DNA of 64,000 nucleotides from an uncultured Rhodospirillaceae bacterium (lineage in GTDB: Bacteria > Pseudomonadota > Alphaproteobacteria > JAEULC01), in the NCBI GenBank assembly GCA_964557415.1, contig CAZLBB010000001.1, positions 3,373 through 67,372 of the forward strand, read 5' to 3'. The notes under the pieces were generated by a model. That model was not told the DNA's origin, ran no database searches, and was given only the letters and a program-made list of their open reading frames with translations. The position numbers and the translations under genes are program-made. Shown here in pieces: positions 2,147 to 22,605 of this stretch; position 1 is the first letter of the stretch, and every line of letters begins with the position of its first letter.

Positions 2147-2941
2147 TCAGCGGCCGACGAACGCCGGCTTGCGCTTCTCCATGAAGGCGCGGCGGCCTTC
2201 GACGTAGTCCTGGCTGGCGAAGCATTCCTTGACCAGCCGCTCGCACAAGGCGACGTCGCGCTCCTCGGCGTCCTTGATCGCCTCGCCGACGATCTGCTTG
2301 ATCGAGCGCACGGTGAGCGGCGCGTTGCCGGCGATCGTGTCGGCGTAGTTCTGCACGTAGTCCTGCAGCTCGGCCTCCGGCACCACGCGGTTCACCAGCC
2401 CCATCACCTCGGCGTCCCTCGCCGTGAACTGGCGCGCGGTGAAGAAGATCTCCTTGGCGAAGGAGGGCCCCACCAGGTCGACCAGACGCTTGACGCCCGG
2501 CAGCGCGTAGCCGAGGCCGAGCTTGGCCGCGGGCACGCCGAACTTCGAGTTGTCCGAGCAGATGCGCAGGTCGCAGCAAACGGCCAGCGCCACGCCGCCA
2601 CCGATGCAGTAGCCGCGGATCATGGCGATGCTCGGCTTGGCGATGTCGGACAGCGCGCGGTACACGCGGTCGGTCGTCTTGTTGTAGTTCTCGACCGCCT
2701 CGGCCGAGGCGCGCTCGCTCTCGAACTTCGAGATGTCCGCGCCCGAAACGAAGGCCTTGCCGCCCGCCCCGGTGATGACGATCACGCGCACCGCCGGGTC
2801 CTTGGCGAAGTCGGCCAGGATCTCCTCTGCCGCCAGCCACATCTCCATCGAGACGGCATTGTGCCGCTCGGGATTGTTGAATGTCATCCAGCCGACGGCG
2901 CCGTCCTTGCGGGCCAACATCTTGTCGGTAGCCATTTCCAT
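2147..2941 (-). CDS. Enoyl-CoA hydratase/isomerase (crotonase fold)
   Basis: ORF 2147..3148 trimmed to MEMATDKMLARKDGAVGWMTFNNPERHNAVS. An AAAGGAGAC SD lies immediately upstream. Crotonase motifs GAGGKAFVSGADI and CIGGGVALA are present. Confidence 0.85.
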   Translation of the reverse strand: MEMATDKMLARKDGAVGWMTFNNPERHNAVSMEMWLAAEEILADFAKDPAVRVIVITGAGGKAFVSGADISKFESERASAEAVENYNKTTDRVYRALSDIAKPSIAMIRGYCIGGGVALAVCCDLRICSDNSKFGVPAAKLGLGYALPGVKRLVDLVGPSFAKEIFFTARQFTARDAEVMGLVNRVVPEAELQDYVQNYADTIAGNAPLTVRSIKQIVGEAIKDAEERDVALCERLVKECFASQDYVEGRRAFMEKRKPAFVGR

Positions 2942-2957
2942 GTCTCCTTTGAGCTGA

Positions 2958-4157
2958 TCAAACGACCCGGCGCTGGCGGAAGCCGGCGATCGCCGCGTCG
3001 TCATAGCCGAATTCGCGCAGGATTTCGTCGGTGTGCTGGCCGATCTCGGGCGGCGGCAGCTGGCCCGAGCTCGGCGTGCGCTCGAGCCGGACCGCCTGGG
3101 CCACGAATTTGGTCGCCGGGCCGCGCGCGGGCGAGTCGATCTCGACATAGGTCTTCAGGTGCTCGACCTGCGGGTCGGCGAAGACCTGGTCCATCTTGTA
3201 GATTTGGCCGCAGGGCACGCCCGCGGCGTTGAGTTTCTCGATCACGGCGTCGCTGCCCATGCCCTGGAGCCGCTTCTCGATCTCGGCGTTGAGCGCATCG
3301 CGGTTCTTCGAGCGGTCGGCTGCGGTCGCGTAGTCCTTGTGCTCGATCAGGTCGGCGGCGCCGATCGCGTGGCAGAACCGCTCCCAGATTTTGCGGCCCG
3401 TGACGGCGATGTTGATGTGCCCGTCCGCCGTCTTGAACACGCCGGTCGGGATGCTGGTCGGATGGTTGTTGCCGGCCTGCGGCGGCACCTCGCCGTCCAT
3501 CAGCCAGCGCGCCGCCTGGAAGTCGAGCATGAAGATCTGCGCCTGCAGGAGCGACGTGTGCACAAATTGGCCCTGGCCCGAGACCTCGCGCTCGAGCAGG
3601 GCCACGACGATGCCGTAGGCGCAGAAGATTCCCGCTGTCAGGTCTGCGATCGGGATGCCGACCCGCACCGGGCCCTGGCCCGGCATGCCGGTGATCCACA
3701 TCAGCCCGCCCATGCCCTGCGCGATCTGGTCGAAGCCGGGCCGGTCGCGATACGGCCCCTCCTGGCCGAAGCCCGAGATGCTGCCGTAGACGATGCGCGG
3801 GTTCACCGCCCGCATCGCCTCGTAATCGATGCCGAGCCGCGTCTTCACATCGGGGCGGAAGTTCTCGACGATCACGTCGGCCTTCCTGGCCATCGTCTTC
3901 AGGATGTCGACGCCCTCTGGCGACTTCAGGTTCAGCGTCATGCTGCGCTTGTTGCGGTGCAGGTTCTGGAAGTCGGAGCCGTGGCGCGGGCCACCCGGCG
4001 CGTCGCCCGGCTCGAGACCCTCCGGCATTTCGATCTTGATGACGTTGGCGCCCCAGTCTGCAAGCTGCCGCACCGCCGTCGGACCGGACCGTACGCGCGT
4101 GAGGTCGAGCACGGTGAAGCGTTTGAGCGCGGACGAGGCAGGACGGAACGGCATCAT
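2958..4157 (-). CDS. CoA-transferase family III (CaiB/BaiF-type)
   Basis: ORF 2958..4265 trimmed to MMPFRPASSALKRFTVLDLTRVRSGPT. Typical family III N-terminus and GRKADVIVENFRPD motif. It sits 17 bp upstream of the hydratase, consistent with an operon. Confidence 0.85.
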   Translation of the reverse strand: MMPFRPASSALKRFTVLDLTRVRSGPTAVRQLADWGANVIKIEMPEGLEPGDAPGGPRHGSDFQNLHRNKRSMTLNLKSPEGVDILKTMARKADVIVENFRPDVKTRLGIDYEAMRAVNPRIVYGSISGFGQEGPYRDRPGFDQIAQGMGGLMWITGMPGQGPVRVGIPIADLTAGIFCAYGIVVALLEREVSGQGQFVHTSLLQAQIFMLDFQAARWLMDGEVPPQAGNNHPTSIPTGVFKTADGHINIAVTGRKIWERFCHAIGAADLIEHKDYATAADRSKNRDALNAEIEKRLQGMGSDAVIEKLNAAGVPCGQIYKMDQVFADPQVEHLKTYVEIDSPARGPATKFVAQAVRLERTPSSGQLPPPEIGQHTDEILREFGYDDAAIAGFRQRRVV

Positions 4158-4294
4158 CGACCTCTGGAACTTGAGGCAAGCATAAGCCGGCGGGCGGCCG
4201 CACATGCGAGCATGCACGACCAGGCAGCCATAGCAGAGTCTGAACCAAGTGAAAACTGTTGACAATTCACAACTAGGCCGGCCTGATAGGCCTG

Positions 4295-5053
4295 ATGGAC
4301 GAGCAGGCCGATCGCACGCCCAAGGCCCAATTGGGCGATACCGCGCTGGCGCTGAAGATCAGGCGCACGGAATCGCTCGCCTCGCTGGTGCGCAAGGAGC
4401 TCGAGCGCATGATCGTCACGGGCGAGCTCCAGGCCGGCGACCGCCTCAACGAGAACGCCCTGGCCGAACGGCTCGGCGTCAGCCGCGGCCCGATCCGCGA
4501 GGCCTGCCGCGGGCTGGAGCAGAGCGGGCTGGTCGAGGTGCAGGTCAACCGCGGCACCTTCGTGCGCCAGATCGGCCTGCAGCAGGCGCTCGACATCTAC
4601 GACCTGCGCGGCGCGTTGTTCGGCTTCGCCGGCCGCACGCTCGCGCTGCGCATCACGCCCGCCCAGCTTGCCCGCCTGACCGCGTTGGTCGAGGCGATGG
4701 ACCGGGCGGTCGAGGACATCGACGCCTACTACCCGCTCAACGTCGAATACCATTCGACGCTGGTCGAGTTCTGCGGCAACGCGCACCTGACGGCGACCTA
4801 CCGCAACCTGGCCAAGGAGCTGCATCTGTTCCGCCGCCGCGGCCTGGTGTCGGAAGGCGTGATGCGGACCTCCAACAGCGAGCATCGCGCCATATTGGAC
4901 GCGCTCGCCGCGCGCGACCCGCAACGCACCGCGGCGCTGATGGAGGCGCATATCCTCGCGGGCAAGGCGCGGCTCTTGAAGACGCTGGACAATGACAAGC
5001 AGACGCCGGCGGAAGCCGCACCGCGCCGCCGCAGGGCGGCCGCCGGCGCGTAA
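4295..5053 (+). CDS. GntR-family transcriptional regulator (FadR/FCD subfamily)
   Basis: wHTH segment LNENALAERLGVSRGPIREA followed by an FCD-type C-terminal domain. Divergent from the CoA-transferase operon and upstream of tctCBA. Confidence 0.8.
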   Translation: MDEQADRTPKAQLGDTALALKIRRTESLASLVRKELERMIVTGELQAGDRLNENALAERLGVSRGPIREACRGLEQSGLVEVQVNRGTFVRQIGLQQALDIYDLRGALFGFAGRTLALRITPAQLARLTALVEAMDRAVEDIDAYYPLNVEYHSTLVEFCGNAHLTATYRNLAKELHLFRRRGLVSEGVMRTSNSEHRAILDALAARDPQRTAALMEAHILAGKARLLKTLDNDKQTPAEAAPRRRRAAAGA

Positions 5054-5093
5054 CAGGCGCAGGCAAGACGGACCAAGCAAGGAGGAGACGACC

Positions 5094-6089
5094 ATGACCA
5101 GGAGAATGCTCGACATCCGCGGCCCCGCACTCACGCGCCGCGCCTTCGCCGCCAGCGCCGCTGCCACGACGGCGCTGGCCTGGAGCCCGTTGCGGGCACA
5201 GGAGAAGTTCCCGTCCAAGACGATCGAAGTGGTGACCCACGCCGGCGTCGGCGGCGGCACCGACATCACGGCGCGCATGATGATGGTGCATGCGCCGGGC
5301 GCATTCAAAACCGAGTTCGCGGTCGTCAACAAGGTCGGCGGCAGCGGCGCTGCGGCGCTCGCCTATGCCAACAGCCGTCCGCGCGACGGCTACACGATCC
5401 TGCTGGTCACGCAGACGCATCTCCTGACCATGATCCAGGGCAAGGCGCCGGTTAAGTACGACGAGATCGTGGCCCTGGCGCGCGCGACCGATGACCCGCA
5501 AGTGCTGATGGTCGGCAAGAACAGCCCGTTCAAGACGGCCAAGGATTTCCTCGACGCGGGCAAGACGAAGTCGATGAAGTACGGCGCCACGCAGCTCGGC
5601 GGCGTCGACCACCTGGCGGTGCTGGGATTCGCCAAGAAGGCCGGGCAGGAGAAGCCGACCGTCGTGCCGTTCCGCGGCGGCGGCGACATCGTGATCAACG
5701 TCGTCGGCGGCAACGTCGATGTCGGCATCCTAAACTATGCCGAGGCCGAATCGCAGATCAAGTCGGGCGACGTGAGGCCGCTCTTGACCCTCGCGCCGAA
5801 GCGTCTTGGGCCCCTGCCCGACGTGCCGTGCTCGAAGGACCTCGGCCTCGATGCCAGCTACTCGACCGTGCGCGGCTTCGTGACGCTGAAAGGCGCGCCA
5901 GAGGAGAATCTCAAGATCCTCGAGGAAGGCCTGATCAAGGCGATGAAGGGGCAGATGTACACGACCTACATCGAGACCTCGGGCCAGTCGCCGGACAGCG
6001 TGGTCGGGCGCAAGGAATGGCAGGCGCAGCTCGATGCCTTCTACAACGAAGGCGCCGAGGCGCTGAAGTCGATCGGCCTGCTGAAGTAG
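5094..6089 (+). CDS. tctC: Tripartite tricarboxylate transporter substrate-binding protein (TctC/Bug family)
   Basis: ORF 4992..6089 trimmed to MTRRMLDIRGPALTRRAFAASAAATTALAWSPLRAQE, a Tat-type signal. AAGGAGGAG SD upstream. Bug-family sequence throughout. Confidence 0.85.
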   Translation: MTRRMLDIRGPALTRRAFAASAAATTALAWSPLRAQEKFPSKTIEVVTHAGVGGGTDITARMMMVHAPGAFKTEFAVVNKVGGSGAAALAYANSRPRDGYTILLVTQTHLLTMIQGKAPVKYDEIVALARATDDPQVLMVGKNSPFKTAKDFLDAGKTKSMKYGATQLGGVDHLAVLGFAKKAGQEKPTVVPFRGGGDIVINVVGGNVDVGILNYAEAESQIKSGDVRPLLTLAPKRLGPLPDVPCSKDLGLDASYSTVRGFVTLKGAPEENLKILEEGLIKAMKGQMYTTYIETSGQSPDSVVGRKEWQAQLDAFYNEGAEALKSIGLLK

Positions 6090-6092
6090 CTA

Positions 6093-6590
6093 ATGTCCGG
6101 ATTGTCCGGACGTCCCGGCGAGGGCTCGCCTTCGCCGGGAACGGTCGACCGTCTCGTCGCCCTCGCAGCGCTGGGGTTCTGCGCGCTCGTCTACGGCCTG
6201 ACCTACACGTTCGACAGCGTGCCCGAGGCGCTGATGAGCGGGCTGGGCGCCGAGCTGTTTCCCCGCCTCGTCCTCATCGTCATGGCGATCCTGTCGCTTT
6301 TGATCGCGGTAGGCGTCGGCGCGCCACCGATCGGCGCGCTGCCGCGGCTGCCGGCGCGCGTCTGGGCGACCGGCGCGGTGCTGTTCGCCTTCGTCGGCGG
6401 GGTCCAGCTCATCGGCATGTTCCCGTCCTCCTTCCTGCTGCTGGTCGGGCTCGGCTGGATGTGGGGCGAGCGCCGGCTGCTCCCGCTGGTGCTCAGCGCC
6501 GCCGGCCTGTGTGCCGCGATCTACCTTCTGTTCGTCCGCTTCGTGGGGGTAAGCTTCCCGCGCAGCATGCTCGGCACGCTGTGGTCTTGA
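6093..6590 (+). CDS. tctB: Tripartite tricarboxylate transporter small permease (TctB-like)
   Basis: 165-aa, 4-TM hydrophobic protein starting 3 nt after the tctC stop and ending 13 nt before tctA. Confidence 0.7.
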   Translation: MSGLSGRPGEGSPSPGTVDRLVALAALGFCALVYGLTYTFDSVPEALMSGLGAELFPRLVLIVMAILSLLIAVGVGAPPIGALPRLPARVWATGAVLFAFVGGVQLIGMFPSSFLLLVGLGWMWGERRLLPLVLSAAGLCAAIYLLFVRFVGVSFPRSMLGTLWS

Positions 6591-6603
6591 GAAGTCCTCG
6601 CTG

Positions 6604-8085
6604 ATGGACGCCTTCCTCGCCGGCATGGCGATCCTGGTCGACCCCTACATGATGGGGCTTGTACTGTCCGGCACGCTGCTCGGCATCATCGTCGGCGCGC
6701 TGCCCGGCATCAGCGGCAGCACGACGACGGCGCTCCTGCTGCCGCTCACCATCACCATGCCGCCGGCCGGCGCGCTCGCCTTCCTCGGCTCGATCTATTG
6801 CGCGGCCAATTTCGGCGGCTCGATCACCGCGATCCTGATCAACGCGCCCGGCGATCCCTCGGCCTCGGCAACCGCCTTCGACGGCTACCCGATGGCGGCG
6901 CGCGGCGAGGCCGGCAAGGCGCTCGGCATCTCGGCGATCGCCAGCGCGATCGGCGGCATCTTCAGCGTGTTCGTGCTGATCGTCGCGGCGCCGCTGCTGG
7001 CGCGCGCCGCCTACAATTTCGGTCCGCCGGAGTACTTCGCGCTGGCGGTGTTCGGCCTGTCGATGGTGGCGGCGATCGGCGGCGACTCGCCGACCAAGAA
7101 CCTGCTGTCGGCCGCCTTCGGTGTGCTGCTGGCCACGGTCGGCCTGGATCTCACCACCGGCGTCGAGCGCTTCACCTTCGGCATCTATGCCTTGAGCGAA
7201 GGCATCGAGTTCATCCCCGTGCTGATCGGCCTGTTCGCCATGGCCGAGCTGCTCGAGCAGGCCGCGCACGGCAACGTGGTGAAGGACTACATCAGGCTGA
7301 GCGCGGTGAAGCTGCCGAGCCTGGCCGATTTCCGCAAGTGCGCCAAGGCGATCATCCTGTCGAGCGGGATCGGCACCTTCATCGGCACGCTGCCGGCGCT
7401 CGGCGCCACGACCGCCTCGATGATCTGCTACAACGAAAGCCGGCGCTGGTCGAAGCACAAGCTCGAGTTCGGCCGCGGCGCGATCGAGGGCGTCGCGGGC
7501 CCCGAGGCCGCCAACAACGCCGCGGTCGGCGGCGCCATGGTGCCGACGCTCGCGCTCGGCATTCCCGGCAGCGCCACGACCGCCATCATCCTGGTCGGGC
7601 TGATCGTGCAGGGCGTGCGCCCGGGACCGCACCTGTTCAATGAGCAGCCCACCCTGCTCTACGTCGTGTTCGCTTCGATGCTGGCAGCCAATGTGCTCTA
7701 TCTCGTGCTCGGGCTGGGCGCTGCCAAGCTGTTCGCGCGCGTGACGCTGATTCCCCCCGCCTACCTGTGGCCCGGCGTGTTCGTGCTGTCGGTCATCGGC
7801 GCCTATGCGCCGAACCAGTCGATGTTCGATGTCGGCGTGATGCTGGTCTTCGGCGTCCTCGGCCTCCTGTTCCGCCGCTTCGGCTTCTCGCCGGCGCCGC
7901 TGATCATGGGTTTGGTGCTCGGGCGCATGGTCGAGGAGACGTTCAAGCAATCGCTGCTGATCTTCGACCAGAACTGGCTGATGTTCTTTAGCCGGCCCAT
8001 CGTCGTCCTGCTGTTCGCGCTGACTGCGCTGGGCCTGAGCGCACCCGCGCTCGCGCATGCGTGGCGGCGGCTGCGGGCGCGCTGA
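6604..8085 (+). CDS. tctA: Tripartite tricarboxylate transporter large permease (TctA)
   Basis: 493-aa polytopic membrane protein with TctA-family signatures (GALPGISGSTTTALLLPLT, GIPGSATTAIIL). Confidence 0.9.
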   Translation: MDAFLAGMAILVDPYMMGLVLSGTLLGIIVGALPGISGSTTTALLLPLTITMPPAGALAFLGSIYCAANFGGSITAILINAPGDPSASATAFDGYPMAARGEAGKALGISAIASAIGGIFSVFVLIVAAPLLARAAYNFGPPEYFALAVFGLSMVAAIGGDSPTKNLLSAAFGVLLATVGLDLTTGVERFTFGIYALSEGIEFIPVLIGLFAMAELLEQAAHGNVVKDYIRLSAVKLPSLADFRKCAKAIILSSGIGTFIGTLPALGATTASMICYNESRRWSKHKLEFGRGAIEGVAGPEAANNAAVGGAMVPTLALGIPGSATTAIILVGLIVQGVRPGPHLFNEQPTLLYVVFASMLAANVLYLVLGLGAAKLFARVTLIPPAYLWPGVFVLSVIGAYAPNQSMFDVGVMLVFGVLGLLFRRFGFSPAPLIMGLVLGRMVEETFKQSLLIFDQNWLMFFSRPIVVLLFALTALGLSAPALAHAWRRLRAR

Positions 8086-8156
8086 GCTTGCTTTGCCACC
8101 CCGTCCGAATTGCGCCAAACTCCCACATCCGTCCTTCCAGCCGCAGGGATACCGGC

Positions 8157-10319
8157 ATGTCGATCATGGATGCCCGCTATCAAGCAGTTTTCGACACGAT
8201 CGCCAAGGTGCGCCGCATCGAACACGAGGACGGCGTGACGCAGGCGGCGCTGGAGCGGATCAAGCCGGTGCTGATCGAGCTTGCCTCGCGCACCGAGCTG
8301 TTTCCGAAGGACCAGTTCGCGGTGCCCGACGGCAGTCATGGTCGCATCTTTCGGCTGGCCGAGGACGCCGATCACCGCTTCGCGCTCTATGCGTCGGCGG
8401 GATCGCCGGGCAAGGCGCAGCCGCCGCACAACCACACGACCTGGGCCGTGATTGCCGGCGTCTACGGCAAGGAGCACAACGTCTTCTACGAACGCATTGA
8501 CAACCGCTCAGTGCCGGGCGAGGGCCGCATCCGCAAGACCGGCGAGCTGACCGTGGTCAAGGGCAATGCCGTGTCGTTCCTGCCCGACGACTTCCATACG
8601 ATCGAGGTGCTGGGCCGCGAGAAGTCGCTGCACCTGCATCTTTACGGCCGCAGCCTGGAGCACCTGCCCGAGCGCATCAACTTCGCGACGTCCGAGGGCG
8701 GCGCCTACAAGATCTTCCCCGCCAGCCCCAACATCTCCACGCCCGAGGTCGCGCCGCAGGCGCTCAAGGCCATGATCCGCGACGGCGGGGAGCTGGCGAT
8801 CCTCGATGTGCGCGAGGAGGGCGTATTCGCGCGCGAGCACCTGCTGTTCGCCGTGCCGCTGCCGCTGAGCCACCTCGAGCTGCGCGCCGACGCCCTGGTG
8901 CCGCGGCGCGGGACGCGCTTGGTCGTGGTCGACGCGGACGGCGGCACCCTGGCGCAGCGCGCGGCCTACCGCCTGTTCGATCTCGGCTACAAGAACATCG
9001 CCGTGCTCAAGGGCGGCGTGCGCGGCTGGCAGAAGGCGGGCTACGAGCTGTTCAGCGGCGTAAACGTGCCGAGCAAGGCCTTCGGCGAGATCGTCGAGCA
9101 CAGATGCGGCACGCCGCGCATCGAGCCGACCGAGCTCAAGGCACGGCTCGACCGCGGCGAGGACATCGTCATCCTCGACAGCCGGCCGCTGGAGGAGTAC
9201 CGGCGCATGAGCATCCCCGGCGGCATCGACTGCCCGGGCGCGGAGCTCGTGTATCGCGCCTTCGACCTGGTGAAGTCGCCCGACACGCTGGTGGTGGTGA
9301 ACTGCGCCGGCCGCACGCGCAGCATCATCGGCACACAGTCGCTGGTCAATGCCGGGCTGCCCAACAAGATCATGGCGCTGAAGAACGGCACGATGGGCTG
9401 GCATCTGGCCGGGCTGAAGCTGGACCAGGGCAGGACGCGGCACGCGCCGGCACCGGGGCCGGAAGGCCTCAAGCGCGCGCAGGAGGCGGCCCGGCGCGTG
9501 GCCGAGCGCTTCGGCGTGCGCCGCATCGACCACGCCGGCCTCGCCCGCTTCCGCGCCGAGGCGAACAAGCGTTCCCTCTACGTGCTCGACGTCCGCACTC
9601 CGGCCGAGTACGAGGCCGGCCACCTGCCCGGCAGCCGCTCGGCGCCCGGCGGACAGCTGGTGCAGGCGACCGACCAGTATGTCGGCGCGCTGAACGCGCG
9701 GCTGGTCCTGGTCGACGGCGAAGCGGTGCGCGCGCTCATGACCGCGTCGTGGCTGACCCAGCTGGGCTGGGGCGAGGTCTACGTGCTCGACAAGGCCCTG
9801 GATGGGCAGGCGCTCGAGCAGGGCGCGGAGAAGGCGACCATGCTGGGCGACGACGGGCCTGTCGCGACGATCTCGGCCGACGAGCTCAACCGGCAGCGCG
9901 ACCGCGCGACCGTCGTCGACCTGGACACGAGCCTCAAGTACCGCGCGGCGCACATCCCCGGGGCGTGGTTCGCGATCCGCGCGCGACTGGCGGACACCGT
10001 CGCCAGGCTGCCGGGCGACGGCCCGATCGTATTGACCTCGCACGACGGCACGCTCGCGCGCTTCGCCGCGCGGGACCTCGCGCCAAGGACGGCGCGCAAG
10101 GTGCTGATGCTCGAAGGCGGCACCGAGGCCTGGCGCGCCGCCGGCTACCGGATCGAGGCCGACGACGAGCGCTGGGCCGACCCGCCCGAGGACGTCTGGT
10201 ACAAGCCCTACGAGAACCGCGGCGCGCCCGAGGAGAAGATGCGCGAGTACCTGACCTGGGAGGTCGCGCTCGTTCCGCAGATCGAGCGCGACGGGGACGC
10301 GAAGTTCCGCGTCGGATAG
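8157..10319 (+). CDS. Cysteine-dioxygenase-like cupin domain fused to four rhodanese domains (one with a catalytic Cys)
   Basis: ORF 8061..10319 trimmed to MSIMDARYQ, with an AGGGA SD upstream. The N-terminal ~190 aa contain PHNHTTWAVIAGVYGKEHNVFYER, a CDO-type cupin His-x-His motif, plus a downstream His. Four rhodanese modules follow. Only module 2 keeps the active-site loop VVVNCAGRTRS. Modules 1, 3 and 4 have Asp or no Cys at that position (VVVDADGGT, VLVDGEAV, VLTSHDGT). Confidence 0.8.
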   Translation: MSIMDARYQAVFDTIAKVRRIEHEDGVTQAALERIKPVLIELASRTELFPKDQFAVPDGSHGRIFRLAEDADHRFALYASAGSPGKAQPPHNHTTWAVIAGVYGKEHNVFYERIDNRSVPGEGRIRKTGELTVVKGNAVSFLPDDFHTIEVLGREKSLHLHLYGRSLEHLPERINFATSEGGAYKIFPASPNISTPEVAPQALKAMIRDGGELAILDVREEGVFAREHLLFAVPLPLSHLELRADALVPRRGTRLVVVDADGGTLAQRAAYRLFDLGYKNIAVLKGGVRGWQKAGYELFSGVNVPSKAFGEIVEHRCGTPRIEPTELKARLDRGEDIVILDSRPLEEYRRMSIPGGIDCPGAELVYRAFDLVKSPDTLVVVNCAGRTRSIIGTQSLVNAGLPNKIMALKNGTMGWHLAGLKLDQGRTRHAPAPGPEGLKRAQEAARRVAERFGVRRIDHAGLARFRAEANKRSLYVLDVRTPAEYEAGHLPGSRSAPGGQLVQATDQYVGALNARLVLVDGEAVRALMTASWLTQLGWGEVYVLDKALDGQALEQGAEKATMLGDDGPVATISADELNRQRDRATVVDLDTSLKYRAAHIPGAWFAIRARLADTVARLPGDGPIVLTSHDGTLARFAARDLAPRTARKVLMLEGGTEAWRAAGYRIEADDERWADPPEDVWYKPYENRGAPEEKMREYLTWEVALVPQIERDGDAKFRVG

Positions 10320-10329
10320 CGCTCCGGGC

Positions 10330-11148
10330 CTACTTCGGCACGACTTGCCGCGGACCCGGCCCGTCGTAGGTCCACAGGTACTCGCGCGGGATCGGGCCCT
10401 TGTTGCGGCCGCCCTGCTGCGATTGCTCCCAGGCATGCGCCAGGATGCCGACCGAGCGCGACAGCACGAACAGGCCGCGCGCGAGCGGCGCAGGGAATCC
10501 CAGCTCGCCGTAGACGGCAGCGGTGGCGCCATCGATGTTCATGGTGATGCGTCTGCCCTTGTTTTGTGCCAGCGCGGCGTCGATCGCGCGCGCCGCGGCG
10601 GCGACGTTGCCCGAAACGGCGCCCGATGCGACGGCGCGGTCGATCAACTCCAGAAGTCGCGGCGGGCGCGGATCCACCGTGTGAAAGCGATGGCCGAAGC
10701 CGGGCACGTGCGCGATGCCGCGCGCAGCCAGCGCGTCGATTTCGGCCGTAGCGGCATCGTCGAGCGGCGCGCCGTCGGCCTGCCGCTTCAGCACGGCCTC
10801 GTAGAGCGCGAGCGCCTGCTCGCCCGCGCCGCCATGCACGTCGCCCAGCACGTTGGCGGCCGAGGCCATGGCGCCGTTGATGCCGACTCCACAGGTGATC
10901 GCCATGCGGGCGATGGCGATCGAGGGCGCCTGCGGCCCGTGGTCGACGCCAGCGACCATCGCCGCACCCAGCAGGTCGGCCTGGGCCGGTGTCGGCAGCT
11001 CGCCCTTCAGCATCAGCCAGATCATGCCGGGGAAGCTGATATCGCCGATCAGGTCCTCGATCGGGTAGCCGCGGAAGCGGATGACGTTCGGGCGCATCTC
11101 GATGATCGAGGTGCGCCACCAGTCCTCGGCAGCGTTGCGCGTATCCAT
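10330..11148 (-). CDS. Citrate-synthase-like small protein (citryl-CoA lyase family)
   Basis: 272 aa. Citrate-synthase-like motifs MIWLMLKGELPTPAQ, VDHGPQAPS, GHRFHTVDPR and GILAHAWEQ. Last gene of the MBL/CoA-transferase operon. Confidence 0.75.
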   Translation of the reverse strand: MDTRNAAEDWWRTSIIEMRPNVIRFRGYPIEDLIGDISFPGMIWLMLKGELPTPAQADLLGAAMVAGVDHGPQAPSIAIARMAITCGVGINGAMASAANVLGDVHGGAGEQALALYEAVLKRQADGAPLDDAATAEIDALAARGIAHVPGFGHRFHTVDPRPPRLLELIDRAVASGAVSGNVAAAARAIDAALAQNKGRRITMNIDGATAAVYGELGFPAPLARGLFVLSRSVGILAHAWEQSQQGGRNKGPIPREYLWTYDGPGPRQVVPK

Positions 11149-11185
11149 GGGAGAGCCCTTTCTGCGAGGCGGACCGGTCGAGGCA

Positions 11186-12376
11186 TCAGATCGTCTTGTC
11201 GGCCCTCAAGGCGGCGATGTCGTCGCTCGAGTAGCCGAGCGAGGCAAGGATCGCATCGGTATCGGCACCGAGCACCGGCGGCGGCAGCTCGGGCGCCGGA
11301 TCGCCGCTGCGAAGCTTGAAGCCGGCGCGCACCATTGCGACCGGCCGGTCGACGCCGGCGACCTCGTCGAAGCGCGTGACCAGGCCGCGCTCGCGCACCT
11401 GCGCGTGCTCCAGCACCTCGGGGACCGAGAGCACCTCGCCCGCGGGCACGCCGTGGCGGTTCAGGAGCCCGGCCCAGTTGCAGGCCGAGTCGTGCGCCAG
11501 GCCCTTCTCGATCTCCGCCTTCAGCGCCGCACGGTTGACGAGGCGATCCTCGCGATGGGCGAAGCGCGGGTCCGCGATCAGCTCGGGCCGGCCAATGACG
11601 TTGCACAGCTTTTCGAACTGCGCCTGCTTGTTGGCGGCGATGTTCAATGGACCCTGCCCGGTCGCGAAGGTGCCGGACGGGCTTGCCGTCACGTTCTCGT
11701 TGCCCATGGGCTCGCTCTTCACGCCGGCGATCAGCCAGTTCGATACCGCCCAGCCCATCGCCACCAGCGTGGACTCCAGCATCGACACGTCGACGAACTC
11801 GCCTTTTCCGGTGCGCGCGCGCTTGAGCAGCGCGGCGGCGATGGCGAAGGCGGCCGTGATGCCGCCCATCGTGTCGGCGACCGGGTAGCCCACCCGCAAC
11901 GGCCCGCTCGCAGCGTCGCCCGTCACGCTCATGACGCCAGAGAAGCCCTGGATGATCTGGTCGTAGGCCGGGTTGTCGCGCAAGGGCCCGTCCTGGCCGA
12001 AGCCGGAGATGGCGCAATAGACCAAGTCGGGCTTGATGCGCTTGAGCGCGTCGTAGCCGAGGCCGAGGCGGTCCATCACGCCGGGCCGGAAATTCTCGAC
12101 CACGGCATCGGCCGTGGCGACCAGACGGCGGAAGATTTCCTTCCCCTTCTCGCTCTTCAGGTTGATGGTGATCGAGCGCTTGCCGGCGTTCTGCGCGAGG
12201 AACGATGCGCCCATCTTGCGCCGGTTGAGGTCGGGCGCCGCGCCCAGCTCGCGCGCGAGGTCGCCGATTTCGGGAACCTCGACCTTGATCACCTCGGCCC
12301 CGAGCTGCGCGAGCTGGAAGCAGCAGAAGGGCCCCGCCAGCACGTTGGTCAGGTCGAGAACCCTGAGGCCCCGCAT
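11186..12376 (-). CDS. CoA-transferase family III (second copy)
   Basis: ORF 11186..12904 trimmed to MRGLRVLDLTNVLAGPFCCFQLAQLGAEVIKVE. The start lies 18 nt after the MBL-gene stop. Confidence 0.85.
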   Translation of the reverse strand: MRGLRVLDLTNVLAGPFCCFQLAQLGAEVIKVEVPEIGDLARELGAAPDLNRRKMGASFLAQNAGKRSITINLKSEKGKEIFRRLVATADAVVENFRPGVMDRLGLGYDALKRIKPDLVYCAISGFGQDGPLRDNPAYDQIIQGFSGVMSVTGDAASGPLRVGYPVADTMGGITAAFAIAAALLKRARTGKGEFVDVSMLESTLVAMGWAVSNWLIAGVKSEPMGNENVTASPSGTFATGQGPLNIAANKQAQFEKLCNVIGRPELIADPRFAHREDRLVNRAALKAEIEKGLAHDSACNWAGLLNRHGVPAGEVLSVPEVLEHAQVRERGLVTRFDEVAGVDRPVAMVRAGFKLRSGDPAPELPPPVLGADTDAILASLGYSSDDIAALRADKTI

Positions 12377-12393
12377 CAGGTCGGCCACGCGCC

Positions 12394-13347
12394 CTACCCC
12401 TGCAGCGCCTTCCACATCTCGATGTCGCGTTCGGCGGTCCAGATGCGCGGGTCGGCGATGCCCGAGACCTCGTCGAAGCAGCGCGAGATGTTGAACGGCA
12501 GGCAGTGCTCGAAGATCACCCACTGCCCGTATTTCGGCTGCAGCGCCTTGTAGGCCTGCTCGAACACGCCCTTCAGGTCCTTGCCCGCCTTGACGCCCGC
12601 TTCGACCGTCCCGCGCATCTCGCGCAGGAAGCCGGCGGTCGCGGCGATCGCCTTGTCGCTGGCCTCGGCCGTCATCATCGCGTCGCCGCGCCCGGGCACC
12701 AGCTTCTCCGGCTTGAAGCCGCGCAGCTTCTCCAGCGTCGCCGGCCATTCCTTCAGATAGGCGTCGCCGCAATAGGGCGTGGTGCCTTCCTCGACCAGGT
12801 CGCCGGCGAACATCACGCGCTCCTTGGGCAGCCAGGCGATGGTGTCGCCCTTGGAATGGCCCTTGCCGATATGCCTGATCCGCACCTCGGTCTTGCCCAT
12901 CCACAGGGTCAGAGCGTTCTCGAATACGAGGTTCGGCCAGGTGAGCCCGGGCACCGACTCGACCGAGCGGAACAGGCGCGGGAAGCGCTGCACCTCGCTG
13001 TCGAAGTCCTGCTTGCCACGCTCCTTGATCAGCTCGTAGGTGCCCTGGCTGGCGATGATGTACTCGGCCTTGTAGGCCGAGGCGCCCATCACCCGCACGG
13101 CATGGTAATGCGTCAGCAGCACGTATTTGAACGGCTTGTCGGTGACGGCCCGGACGTGGCGGATGACATCCTCGGCCATGGCAGGCGTGGCCCGCGTGTC
13201 GATCACCATCACGCCGTCGTCGCCGATGATGACGCCGGTGTTCGGATCGCCTTCGGCCGTCAGGCAGTAGGCGTTGTCCGCCAGCTTGACGAATTTCTCC
13301 TGTTTCGCCGCCAGGTCGCCCTGCGACGCGAATGACTTGGGCGTCAT
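12394..13347 (-). CDS. MBL-fold metallo-hydrolase-like protein with a non-canonical metal motif
   Basis: ORF 12394..13419 trimmed to MTPKSFASQGDLAAKQ. Beta-lactamase-fold layout (VIDTRATP...LLTHYHAVRVMG...GKGHSKGDTIAW...FAGDLV). The canonical HxHxDH is replaced by HYHAVR. Confidence 0.75.
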   Translation of the reverse strand: MTPKSFASQGDLAAKQEKFVKLADNAYCLTAEGDPNTGVIIGDDGVMVIDTRATPAMAEDVIRHVRAVTDKPFKYVLLTHYHAVRVMGASAYKAEYIIASQGTYELIKERGKQDFDSEVQRFPRLFRSVESVPGLTWPNLVFENALTLWMGKTEVRIRHIGKGHSKGDTIAWLPKERVMFAGDLVEEGTTPYCGDAYLKEWPATLEKLRGFKPEKLVPGRGDAMMTAEASDKAIAATAGFLREMRGTVEAGVKAGKDLKGVFEQAYKALQPKYGQWVIFEHCLPFNISRCFDEVSGIADPRIWTAERDIEMWKALQG

Positions 13348-13467
13348 CCTTCCTCTCCGCGCGTGGTCCGTCCGGGCCGGATGCAAGACCAGGACGCGCG
13401 CGGCGTCAACCCAAAGCAAGCCGCGCCCAGCGGGGCTGCCCGCCGGGCGCGAGGCATCAGCTCAGGG

Positions 13468-20136: not shown

Positions 20137-20976
20137 TCATGCACCCTGGTCGATGTTCATACCGCGGGCGACCAGCGAAGTCGGTGCGTCGTCCCGTGCT
20201 GGGACGCCCACCAGACCGACAAGACCTTGGGCAGGATGCCCGATCGATCGTGAGTTCCGCGATACGTGCCAGACGGTCATCCACAGCACGAAGATCAGGT
20301 TGATGATCAGCATCCACTCCCAGAGGGCCTTGCTGAAGACGAGCCAGGGCAGCTTTTTTTCCGGAAAGTCCGATCCGAACAGATCGGGGGAGTGCGTCGC
20401 CAGCCACACGATCTCGCAGATCCCGGTCGCGATCAGCGGCAACCCGATGAGGACGGCCGTGAGAGCGCCATACAACTGCGCATCGCGCGATCCCGGCGCC
20501 TGGCGGATCGCAATGGCCGTGAAGCAGGCAAAGCCGAAGGCGTAGCCGCCGAATCCGGCGCCGGTCGCCACTTCGTGGACGAATCGCACTTTCCCGAGAT
20601 TCGGAAAGAGAGCCCCCTCGATGCCCAGGGTCACCAACGCCACGGCGCCGATATACAGCAGCGCCAGGCCAAGACGGTTCAGCGATTGACGTCGCGGGAG
20701 CGTCAGGAACAGGTAGTGGACAACCGGCACCGACAGCAGGCCGACGAGGATCAGGCCGACACCGAAATAACGGTGGCCGAGAGGGTTGTCGCGCGCGGAG
20801 GCCAGGGAGGAAACCCAGCGGTAGCGCAGATCGAACGCGGTCGGGTAATAGGATGCGGCGATCGCGACCGAGCCGAAGAAGCTGGCCACGATCAGCAGGC
20901 ACAGGACATGGGCCGCCGTCGTGGATGGTGCCAGGGCGCGCAACGCACGGACGGCAGCCGGACTAACCAACGCCAC
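20137..20976 (-). CDS. Hypothetical polytopic membrane protein
   Basis: 279 aa, about 7 predicted TM segments, no recognisable motif. Overlaps the upstream LptF/G-like gene by 14 nt; the start is uncertain. Confidence 0.5.
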   Translation of the reverse strand: MALVSPAAVRALRALAPSTTAAHVLCLLIVASFFGSVAIAASYYPTAFDLRYRWVSSLASARDNPLGHRYFGVGLILVGLLSVPVVHYLFLTLPRRQSLNRLGLALLYIGAVALVTLGIEGALFPNLGKVRFVHEVATGAGFGGYAFGFACFTAIAIRQAPGSRDAQLYGALTAVLIGLPLIATGICEIVWLATHSPDLFGSDFPEKKLPWLVFSKALWEWMLIINLIFVLWMTVWHVSRNSRSIGHPAQGLVGLVGVPARDDAPTSLVARGMNIDQGA

Positions 20977-22156
20977 CGTCCCTCATCGACGGTGCGGTCC
21001 TGCGCCAGGTCGGCATGGAGAGCGCTGCGTAGCGCTGCAACCGACCAAGCAGCTCGCCGCGCGGAAGTCGCCTGTCGCAGTACGCGAGCATGAGCGCACA
21101 GGCAAGTCCCGGCAGGATCGTGTTCAGGTGGATAACCGGCACCAGAACCGTGGCTTTCGATGCCGCGCTGGCAAGGAGCAGGTTCAGCGCCTGCACGATC
21201 AGGACGGCGCCGCAGGCAAAGAGGATGCGCACGCGCGCGCCACGGCGGTCGTACGCTCCGACGAGCAATGCGCACAAAGCGATCGCGACATAGGTCAGGC
21301 ACAGCAGCGGCAAGGCAATGCGCTGATTGCCTTCCGCCAGGGATCGACCGTAGAGCTCGCGATCGCGCGGCGTCTCGGTCGGTGGATTCAGCAGCTCCAT
21401 GAGGCCGCGTTCGGCCATGCCGCGCTCGCGAATCCGGGCGGGTCCGGACTCGCGCATGTCGATCTCCGTGACGTGCTGCTCGAAATAGACCATCGAAAGC
21501 TTTCCGGTGCGCCGCTCGAACTCCTGCATATTGCCGCGCTTGAGCAGGACTTTGTTGACGTCGCCCACGCGCGACAAGAGGGCGCTTTCGGCGGTGACGG
21601 TCTTCGAGCGCTCCGGGTCGCGGTCGTCCTGGACGAGGACCCCGATCAGCTCGCCGCTTCGCGTGCGCTCCCGGACGTATATGGTGACCTTCGCCCCGAG
21701 CCGGCTGAACTCGCCCTCCTTGATCATCAGGTTCGCGACGCGGTGCTTCAGGAAGAATTCGATATCCTTGAACTCGCCGAACGATGCCGGCATGAAATAG
21801 GCCGACATCGACAGGCATACCAGCGTCGTGGCGCCGGCGACGATGACCGCAGGCAGCGCGAGCGCGGCGCTGCTCATGCCGGCCGAGCGCAGCACCACGA
21901 GCTCGTTGTCGATGCTCAGCTTGTGATAGATGAAAAGTACGCTGGCGAACCCGGCGAGCGGCAACAGGCCGAACAGCAGCATCGGCATGGTCAGCAGCAT
22001 GATGTACAGGTAGACGGAGACCGACAGGCCGCGGTTGATGATGTAGTCCAGGAACACCAGGGACCGCGTGATGCATGCGACGGCGACGACGATCGCGATA
22101 ACTGCGACGGTGGTCTTGACCAGGGCGCCGAGGATGTAGCGCTGCGGCAGGGTCAT
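20963..22156 (-). CDS. LptF/LptG (YjgP/YjgQ) family permease, orphan
   Basis: 397 aa. N-terminal MTLPQRYILGALVKTTV and overall YjgP/YjgQ topology. No LptB-like ATPase or partner permease is adjacent. Confidence 0.75.
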   Translation of the reverse strand: MTLPQRYILGALVKTTVAVIAIVVAVACITRSLVFLDYIINRGLSVSVYLYIMLLTMPMLLFGLLPLAGFASVLFIYHKLSIDNELVVLRSAGMSSAALALPAVIVAGATTLVCLSMSAYFMPASFGEFKDIEFFLKHRVANLMIKEGEFSRLGAKVTIYVRERTRSGELIGVLVQDDRDPERSKTVTAESALLSRVGDVNKVLLKRGNMQEFERRTGKLSMVYFEQHVTEIDMRESGPARIRERGMAERGLMELLNPPTETPRDRELYGRSLAEGNQRIALPLLCLTYVAIALCALLVGAYDRRGARVRILFACGAVLIVQALNLLLASAASKATVLVPVIHLNTILPGLACALMLAYCDRRLPRGELLGRLQRYAALSMPTWRRTAPSMRDGGVG

Positions 22157-22353: not shown

Positions 22354-22384
22354 GAAGGACCGCTTCTCGCGAAGCGGCCCTTCC
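22354..22384 (-). terminator. Hairpin downstream of the DMGDH-family gene (candidate intrinsic terminator or 5' UTR structure)
   Basis: aaggaccgcttc-tcgc-gaagcggccctt, a 12-bp stem with one mismatch. On the minus-strand transcript it is followed by uucguuugg. It lies about 220 nt after the DMGDH stop and about 200 nt before the LptF/G-like start. Confidence 0.3.
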
Positions 22385-22605
22385 ATTGTCCCTCGGTCGG
22401 TGCCGAGGACCAAAACGTCGGATCAGCTCACGCCCTGTCCAAGGCGGAGACAACCCAGGTCCCGGTGGTCGACCGAACATGACAATGAGACACTGGATCA
22501 CCTCCTTTCACGTTGTTGAACATGTGCAGCAATATGGCAAGGCGGGCGCGGTGTCACAAGAGTATTATTGCAGGCGGTATGCTGAGAATTGCCGCCGAAT
22601 CGCCC

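Follow-up and report, generated by a model that had tools for sequence, protein, structure and literature searches.

The window analysed here is a stretch of 64,000 nucleotides (nt) from an uncultured Rhodospirillaceae bacterium (contig CAZLBB010000001.1 of assembly GCA_964557415.1, positions 3,373 to 67,372 of the forward strand). Its positions 8157-10319, on the plus strand, are occupied by a gene specifying a single 720-residue polypeptide, in which a cupin thiol dioxygenase domain is followed by four rhodanese modules. The frame runs from an ATG at 8157 to a stop codon at 10317-10319 with no internal stop, and an AGGGA Shine-Dalgarno element lies 8 nt 5' of the ATG. The G+C content at third codon positions (GC3) is 0.92, in a window whose overall G+C content is 0.69, a mark of genuine coding sequence here. 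An NCBI protein (P0001) is identical over all 720 residues, and full-length homologues make up more than 120 clusters. A GTG at 8061 was considered as an alternative start (it would give 752 residues) and rejected; ATG 8157 is preferred because homologues are 716-730 residues long and the AGGGA element precedes it. The merging of two genes through a sequencing error was also considered and rejected, since the same uninterrupted frame is found in 55 species. The AlphaFold2 model of the entire protein (built on a 54-sequence alignment) has a pLDDT (predicted local distance difference test score) of 93.4 and a predicted template-modelling score (pTM) of 0.92. The only cysteines are residues 317, 359 and 383, all within or just before the second rhodanese module. 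This architecture of a dioxygenase with four rhodanese modules is real and far beyond chance, and confidence in the domain identities of both halves is very high. An earlier reading of the same DNA (the original prediction) had proposed a cupin and four rhodanese modules in one polypeptide, and translation, phmmer searches and four separate Pfam matches bear it out.

The dioxygenase domain comprises residues 1-190 (8157-8726). Searched with phmmer against PDB sequences, it matches mercaptosuccinate dioxygenase (MSDO; PDB 8VNI) over residues 3-184 with 38% identity and E = 7.8e-38; the matches to 3-mercaptopropionate dioxygenase (3MDO) and to bacterial cysteine dioxygenase (CDO) have E-values of 4e-8 and 1e-6. 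Foldseek places the N-terminal part of the AlphaFold model on 8VNI with a target-normalised TM-score (TMt) of 0.88 and a root-mean-square deviation (rmsd) of 1.9 Å, the corresponding TMt values being 0.74-0.78 for 3MDO and ~0.7 for rat and human CDO; the predicted cupin β-barrel is superposable on solved thiol dioxygenases. Scans of the first 198 residues with Pfam and NCBIfam return no matches (in the case of Pfam, even at E ≤ 10). The empty scan, which by itself would have spoken against the original prediction, was not taken to exclude a dioxygenase, since the searches of PDB sequences and of folds are both unambiguous. What this means for the original prediction is that its Rhodanese family is found by Pfam four times over, but that CDO_I (PF05995) is not, so that the N-terminal domain had to be placed by way of PDB. 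Likewise, its "CDO-type" cupin is a thiol dioxygenase cupin with the His-x-His motif, but one that sequence comparison assigns to the MSDO clade and not to CDO proper. Resemblance to CDO is that of distant homology (16-20% identity), with a shared three-His site and a shared His/Tyr second sphere.

Roles of individual residues have been transferred from the MSDO crystal-structure paper (bioRxiv 10.64898/2026.05.19.726356) through the alignment with 8VNI, and their conservation has been counted over 57 fused and 17 free homologues in a MAFFT alignment of 75 domains. In the segment PPHNHTTWAVIAGVYGKEHNVFYER (residues 89-113), His91-x-His93 (8427-8435) would supply two of the three Fe(II) ligands, corresponding to MSDO His93 and His95; His147 (8595-8597; MSDO His149) would be the third. 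The iron site for which the original prediction had suggested a check is accordingly accounted for, and its three histidines are invariant in 74/74 homologues. A second-sphere motif, His159-x-His161-x-Tyr163 (8631-8645), corresponds to MSDO His161, His163 and Tyr165. Its tyrosine is kept in 74/74 and His161 in 73/74 (56/57 fused, 17/17 free). Arg173 (8673-8675), also kept in 74/74, is the equivalent of MSDO Arg175, which is salt-bridged to the iron-bound proximal carboxylate (bioRxiv 10.64898/2026.05.19.726356). Taken over fused and free homologues together, the mapped active-site residues are invariant, two of them near-invariant. The position of the crosslinking cysteine of CDO is held by Ala97 (MSDO Ala99), and therefore the Cys-Tyr crosslink that the original prediction had thought worth looking for cannot form.

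The domain passes into a conserved lid and linker segment, GGAYKIFPASPNISTPEVA (residues 181-199; 8697-8753), that is equivalent to the C-terminal active-site lid of MSDO and leads straight into the first rhodanese module. Conservation is 90% or more at G181, G182, Y184, A189 and P191 and complete at I193; the fused family keeps this lid as GGAYxxFPAxPNI. By sequence and structure, the N-terminal domain is thus a complete three-His Fe(II) thiol dioxygenase of the MSDO clade. It shares with the known Msdo proteins (of Variovorax paradoxus B4, PDB 8VNI, 9NYV and 9NYW, and of Advenella mimigardefordensis DPN7T) the cupin fold, iron site, His-His-Tyr second sphere, alanine at the crosslink position, Arg175 equivalent and lid. 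Msdo, on the other hand, is a free protein of ~200 residues and has a different substrate pocket (see below).

The rest of the protein is a rhodanese unit with end-to-end homology to Pseudomonas aeruginosa PA2603, a 539-residue protein of solved structure (1YT8). Residues ~205-717 match 1YT8 without a break at E = 1e-141 (the query being the 529-residue C-terminal piece, aligned over its residues 14-526), and Foldseek superposes the model on 1YT8 over 525 residues with TMt 0.96, rmsd 1.6 Å and 50% identity. By both comparisons, the four modules and the 52-residue tail that follows them constitute one pre-existing structural unit of 1YT8 type, and not an ad hoc array. Scanned singly, each module passes the curated threshold of Pfam Rhodanese. 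Module 1 (residues 200-299; 8754-9053; E = 6.6e-14) has Asp259 at the position of the catalytic cysteine, and this aspartate is found in 78 of 80 sequences (55 fused proteins and 25 unfused relatives). Module 2 (residues 320-424; 9114-9428; E = 5e-11) is, by its sequence, the catalytic one. Its active-site loop, Asn382-Cys383-Ala-Gly-Arg-Thr-Arg-Ser389 (NCAGRTRS; 9300-9323), recurs unchanged in 1YT8, and CAGRTRS is shared without exception by 55/55 fused proteins, 25/25 unfused relatives and 1YT8. Module 3 (residues 455-556; 9519-9824; E = 1.8e-10) has Asp520, present in 79/80, and module 4 (residues 570-668; 9864-10160; E = 2.6e-9) has Ser628-His-Asp630, with serine in 70/80. The assignment of catalysis to module 2, with Asp or no Cys in modules 1, 3 and 4, had already been made in the original prediction and stands. 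Arg-rich six-residue loops are typical of sulfurtransferases, seven-residue loops of phosphatases. Sequence and structure make the C-terminal 520 residues a sulfurtransferase of PA2603/1YT8 type, whose one catalytic cysteine, Cys383, sits in a six-residue loop that binds anions. Modules 1 and 2 together look like the classical tandem of an inactive and an active rhodanese; modules 3 and 4 are both predicted to be inactive here.

The two versions of the unit are not identical in their cysteines. Where Ser628 (codon 10038-10040) stands, 1YT8 has Cys; conversely, Cys359 (9231-9233), the second conserved cysteine of module 2, is invariant in 54 close homologues and is Cys in 48/55 fused and 13/25 unfused proteins, but Val in 1YT8. 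With these two exchanges, the Pseudomonas type and the fused type part ways in how many reactive cysteines they have and where these are placed. The tail (residues 669-720; 10161-10316) aligns with 1YT8 to its last residues; W681, Y682, P684, Y685, Y698, W701 and E702 are conserved, and the model has a helix at 691-712. A literature search found no paper citing 1YT8 and no published assay; the name "thiosulfate sulfurtransferase" is an annotation.

Relatives of the rhodanese unit occur in at least 588 species (scanned with one genome per species). Among the best 80 species loci of that set, 55 carry the fused gene (700-800 residues), 14 a split pair and 11 the rhodanese gene alone. A split pair consists of a gene for a ~200-residue dioxygenase directly upstream of a gene for a ~530-residue four-rhodanese protein, and in 8/14 of these pairs the stop and start codons overlap or are at most 3 nt apart. 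A neighbour-joining tree built on the rhodanese part intersperses fused, split and solitary forms with one another, which suggests repeated fusion or fission. Carriers are mainly Alphaproteobacteria (Stellaceae, Reyranella, Rhodospirillales) and Burkholderiales, with Variovorax sp. GB4P3, Cupriavidus neocaledonicus STM6070, Delftia sp. PS-11, Achromobacter dolens LMG 26840 and Pseudorhodoferax sp. Leaf267 among the cultured ones. Against representatives of 50%-identity clusters, the N-terminal domain finds 882 proteins at E ≤ 0.001 (81 at E ≤ 1e-30); the best 150 representatives include ~17 full-length fusions and many more truncated ones. In two loci, ~1375-residue frames have been called (L036, 4650-8795; L037, 7099-11223), with the dioxygenase domain starting near residue 640-680. 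They are probably artefacts of frames that stay open through the antisense of an upstream lytic-transglycosylase-like gene in high-GC genomes.

The names given to fused proteins in databases, "rhodanese-like domain-containing protein" and "sulfurtransferase", refer to the second half; the JGI name adds [quoted passage not shown]. Full-text literature searches found no paper on a dioxygenase/four-rhodanese fusion, in agreement with the statement of the original prediction that it was aware of no characterised member. That prediction had also allowed for the fusion being both common and already characterised: common it is (the 55 of the best 80 loci), but not characterised. The fusion is, in sum, widespread and uncharacterised, and has a distinct active-site signature.

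The two halves are also known as neighbours. In P. protegens, the counterparts of PA2602 (3mdo) and PA2603 (tst) are apparently transcribed as one unit (PMC12947264), and in V. paradoxus B4 and A. mimigardefordensis the msdo gene has a rhodanese-domain gene and a cystathionine β-lyase gene in its cluster (PMC5373536). The original prediction had regarded thiol dioxygenases as normally stand-alone; as proteins they are, but their genes already adjoin this rhodanese unit. The PA2603 gene lies directly beside a thiol dioxygenase gene, as the rhodanese unit does here. It differs in specifying a separate protein and in having a partner of 3MDO type (~21% identical to the present dioxygenase) and not of MSDO type. 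The fused gene can be thought of as the Rosetta-stone fusion of a known but unexplained gene pair, and it confirms that pairing rather than revealing a new one. The large rhodanese protein beside the 3MDO and MSDO genes has so far been ignored or left unexplained, the dioxygenases having been studied as isolated enzymes, and a widespread covalent fusion is strong genomic evidence for a shared pathway. The fusion overturns nothing; what it offers is a handle on the question of what keeps bacterial thiol dioxygenases in the company of a dedicated multi-rhodanese protein, and a single polypeptide in which to probe how dioxygenation couples to sulfane-sulfur transfer. In Proteobacteria of soil and freshwater, it is on enzymes of this kind that the fate of organosulfur carboxylates, and the release of toxic sulfite, depend.

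The two catalytic centres are intact and strongly conserved, and three kinds of genetic link join the units. Because they are fused in some bacteria, translationally coupled as split genes in others and paired in operons in yet others, it is very likely that the two activities act on one pathway. The preferred explanation is that the protein is a cytoplasmic bifunctional sulfur enzyme, in which the dioxygenase oxidises a small anionic thiol and the rhodanese unit handles the accompanying sulfur species; as a whole it is given a probability of roughly 0.45. An anionic low-molecular-weight thiol would attach to the dioxygenase by its thiolate and by a nearby carboxylate, the latter held by Arg173, and would be oxidised with O2 to the sulfinate. 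Here the thiol would probably be a mercapto-carboxylate, imported by a TctCBA transporter under the control of a GntR/FCD-family regulator, both encoded upstream. In the preferred version, a persulfide on Cys383 would give its sulfane sulfur to sulfite released from the sulfinate, making thiosulfate, or else to the sulfinate itself, making a thiosulfonate; such transfer would keep free sulfite from escaping. In a close variant, Cys383 would strip the sulfane sulfur from the persulfide form of the thiol, and the dioxygenase would receive the plain thiol. There is precedent for several of these steps: both sulfite and the sulfinate hypotaurine accept sulfane sulfur from sulfurtransferases (PMC7545470), and sulfinosuccinate decays to succinate and sulfite (PMC5373536). 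Confidence in the coupling chemistry, be it capture of sulfite or sulfinate or the handling of persulfides, is modest, and the channelling suggested in the original prediction keeps the standing of an inference.

Several points weigh against this explanation. No measured activity is on record for any fused member or for the 1YT8 family. The window shows no evident donor of sulfane sulfur to Cys383: no gene for cystathionine lyase, SQR or the like was found, and a tblastn search across it turned up no homologue of cystathionine lyase, TauD, free MSDO or 3MDO, or MoaB. Gene neighbourhoods of the fused gene are poorly conserved, and the connection with Tct transport is therefore valid for a minority of genomes only. 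3-Sulfinopropionate, the product of 3MDO, is stable and is metabolised further without decaying to sulfite, so that simple capture of sulfite cannot explain the pairing of 3MDO with PA2603. Finally, deletion of tst in P. protegens has no significant effect on levels of 3-mercaptopropionate (PMC12947264), and the rhodanese is thus not needed for dioxygenation itself.

The same deletion phenotype would be expected if the protein were an ordinary mercaptosuccinate or 3-mercaptopropionate dioxygenase whose largely inactive rhodanese array does no more than give structure, promote oligomerisation or regulate, and might, for example, sense thiosulfate, sulfite or a persulfide and gate the lid. That three of four modules are without a cysteine in the active-site position, and that the MSDO lid segment is tethered directly to module 1, would suit such a role. 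It is nevertheless distinctly unlikely: the catalytic loop of module 2 is invariant in 80/80 sequences, which indicates selection for catalysis, and the specificity residues of the dioxygenase are unlike those of MSDO. Moreover, tandems of an inactive and an active rhodanese are the usual design of catalytic sulfurtransferases.

MSDO holds the distal carboxylate of mercaptosuccinate by means of Gln64, Arg66 and Asn82, of which Arg66 is essential (bioRxiv 10.64898/2026.05.19.726356). In the MAFFT alignment, the corresponding strand of the present protein, Gly62-Arg63-Ile64-Phe65-Arg66 (8340-8354), has Gly62 in place of Gln64 and Ile64 in place of Arg66, with an extra arginine (Arg66 in its own numbering) two residues on, and Ser80 (8394-8396) takes the place of Asn82. 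The position of MSDO Arg66 is also that of CDO Arg60 (bioRxiv 10.64898/2026.05.19.726356), so that CDO is likewise not matched at this point. Among the 57 fused domains, MSDO position 64 has changed from Gln to Gly in 39, position 66 from Arg to Ile, Val or Leu in 56, position 82 from Asn to Ser in 54 and position 68 from Leu to Arg in 44; position 68 lies two residues past 66 on the same strand, and hence on the same face. The distal-carboxylate pocket of strict MSDO is not present here, but the equivalent of the proximal-carboxylate arginine is. Because the distal-carboxylate residues are replaced, the fused domain is assigned to the MSDO clade only and is not classed as a mercaptosuccinate dioxygenase. 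Its substrate is probably not, or not only, mercaptosuccinate; most likely it is some other anionic thiol that would still chelate the iron through thiolate and carboxylate. The altered pocket points to an undescribed specificity class of thiol dioxygenases.

Free homologues that have Arg66 and Asn82 also exist, and in five loci of Burkholderiales (L058, L059, L060, L063 and L068) they share the locus with the fused gene. In L068 a free MSDO-type gene (5452-6126) is followed by a gene for a cystathionine β-lyase-like enzyme dependent on pyridoxal phosphate (PLP; 6126-7331), a LysR gene (7425-8768) and the fused gene (8950-11157), a layout that mirrors the published msdo locus of A. mimigardefordensis; L058 also has the lyase, together with genes of an amino-acid ABC transporter. 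Loci of the L068 type suggest that the natural thiol arises by C-S lyase cleavage of an imported S-substituted cysteine. Domains like that of MSDO are found in other fusions as well. Proteins P0185 (599 residues) and P0267 (534 residues) have, N-terminal to it, a PLP domain of the aminotransferase class I/II fold, which is also the fold of C-S lyases of the MalY/PatB type, and P0165 (348 residues) has a Polyketide_cyc2/SRPBCC domain in that position. The PLP fusions independently tie a possible C-S lyase step to this dioxygenase clade.

The remodelling of the MSDO distal-carboxylate pocket in all fused proteins, and the frequent presence of a free MSDO- or 3MDO-type dioxygenase in the locus of the fused gene (suggesting a different job for the fused domain), would also suit an iron site that acts on persulfides. 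The fused cupin would then be a new, cupin-based dioxygenase of persulfide or sulfane sulfur, its iron taking either a low-molecular-weight RSSH or the persulfide of Cys383, and it would depend on the four-rhodanese unit as the obligate carrier of its substrate; the sulfane sulfur of thiosulfate or of persulfides would end up as sulfite or thiosulfate, and no organic sulfinate would be made. The model for such an arrangement is CstB of Staphylococcus aureus, whose iron persulfide dioxygenase has its sites coupled in such a way that thiosulfate is made and sulfite is not released (PMC12934615). CstB and other PRFs (persulfide dioxygenase-rhodanese fusions) likewise combine in one chain a non-heme Fe(II) sulfur dioxygenase, a pseudo-rhodanese and a catalytic rhodanese with tightly coupled sites, and the pTM of 0.92 implies that the domains of the present protein, too, are in fixed arrangement. 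However, the dioxygenase of the PRFs has the ETHE1 metallo-β-lactamase fold and a persulfide substrate and goes with two rhodanese-type modules, where here there are a cupin and four modules, so that the likeness is one of functional analogy and not of homology in the dioxygenase part.

Conversion of persulfides by convergence with CstB is, on balance, unlikely. Arg173 is invariant, and its equivalent in MSDO and 3MDO holds the carboxylate of the iron-bound substrate; the lid segment typical of small-thiol dioxygenases is invariant as well. The peripheral features with which ADO and PCO accept peptides are absent from MSDO (bioRxiv 10.64898/2026.05.19.726356), on which the model superposes closely. 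Split pairs, moreover, exist, and in these the Cys383 loop would need to dock in trans. Should this improbable alternative nevertheless prove correct, a cupin persulfide dioxygenase would be a convergent analogue of CstB and ETHE1, and its existence would account for two things: the frequent retention of free MSDO- or 3MDO-type paralogues at one locus with the fused gene, and the wide association of thiol dioxygenase genes with partners of PA2603 type.

Some neighbours of the fused gene bring up yet another role for the rhodanese unit, that of a sulfur relay for the molybdenum cofactor (Moco) or another thio-cofactor, serving a molybdoenzyme that would oxidise the sulfite formed downstream of the dioxygenase; the fusion would then represent co-regulation and not chemical coupling. 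The same role has been proposed for the rhodanese protein of V. paradoxus B4 (PMC5373536). In one locus (L081), a moaA gene (Radical_SAM and Mob_synth_C; 8977-9972) ends 29 nt upstream of the fused gene (10001-12166), whose product, P0008, is 69% identical to the 720-residue protein, and L082 has the same order; in the Reyranella clade, a MoaB/Mog-like gene lies near the fused gene. In NCBIfam, the rhodanese modules score best, as partial matches, against the rhodanese domains of MoeB/MoeZ, at values far short of the cut-off. This role is very unlikely nonetheless, since the Moco neighbours are confined to a few loci that are either related (the Reyranella clade) or carry copies of one protein (L081 and L082), the fusion protein has neither a MoeB adenylation domain nor a MoaD partner, and co-regulation alone hardly explains repeated covalent fusion and translational coupling. 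The Reyranella-clade loci in question (L026, L032, L033 and L039-L049) have, a few genes upstream of the fused gene, a 3MDO-like CDO homologue (~205 residues, on the divergent strand) in addition to the MoaB/Mog-like gene, and F0 ATP synthase genes downstream.

In the window itself, the fused gene closes a cluster of genes on the same strand. The first gene of this cluster encodes the GntR/FCD-family regulator (4295-5053; Pfam FCD 9.6e-30, GntR 9.4e-19), and is followed by genes for a TctC/Bug periplasmic carboxylate-binding protein (4992-6089; Pfam TctC 1.2e-22; the true start is probably downstream of 4992), the small membrane subunit TctB (6093-6590; Pfam TctB 8.1e-14) and the large membrane subunit TctA (6604-8085; Pfam TctA 1.6e-153), all on the plus strand. 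The gap between the TctA gene and the fused gene is 71 nt, and no terminator-like site was found in it; the next genes downstream are convergent. Across species, no protein is found more often as immediate neighbour than TctC, which accounts for 11 of 118 neighbour proteins. A conserved neighbourhood that would name the substrate was sought across the loci and not found; ABC transporters, acyl-CoA dehydrogenases, TauD-type dioxygenases, cystathionine β-lyase-like enzymes and CoA-transferases are neighbours in subsets of loci only. V. paradoxus TBEA6 needs a TctC protein to grow on (take up) the organosulfur dicarboxylate 3,3'-thiodipropionate (PMC8102459), and by analogy the import of a mercapto-carboxylate by the TctCBA system upstream of the fused gene is plausible.

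The convergent genes, on the minus strand at 10330-13419, encode a citryl-CoA lyase (10330-11148; NF004864, 430 bits against a cut-off of 261), a family III CoA-transferase (~11186-12400) and a protein of metallo-β-lactamase fold (12394-13419) whose best NCBIfam matches are to SoxH-related hydrolases, below cut-off. From the families represented, this set looks like a CoA-dependent route for the cleavage of di- or tricarboxylates that adjoins the Tct transporter. An enoyl-CoA hydratase gene and that of a second family III CoA-transferase lie upstream of the regulator, also on the minus strand (2147-4265); a Stellaceae metagenome-assembled genome has counterparts of the two (69% and 66% identity) next to its fused gene (L012, 11642-13675). 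About a dozen loci have family III CoA-transferases no more than 9 kb from the fused gene.

Two RNA matches lie farther downstream in the window. The Rfam family RF01867 (Caulobacter sRNA CC2171) matches the minus strand at 22356-22517 with 76.4 bits against a gathering score of 75 (E = 6.7e-14), which is consistent with an alphaproteobacterial origin of the window. ARAGORN calls an 82-nt tRNA-Arg(TCG) on the plus strand at 21121-21202, inside a high-GC3 open reading frame of the opposite strand (20963-22156); this call is possibly false.

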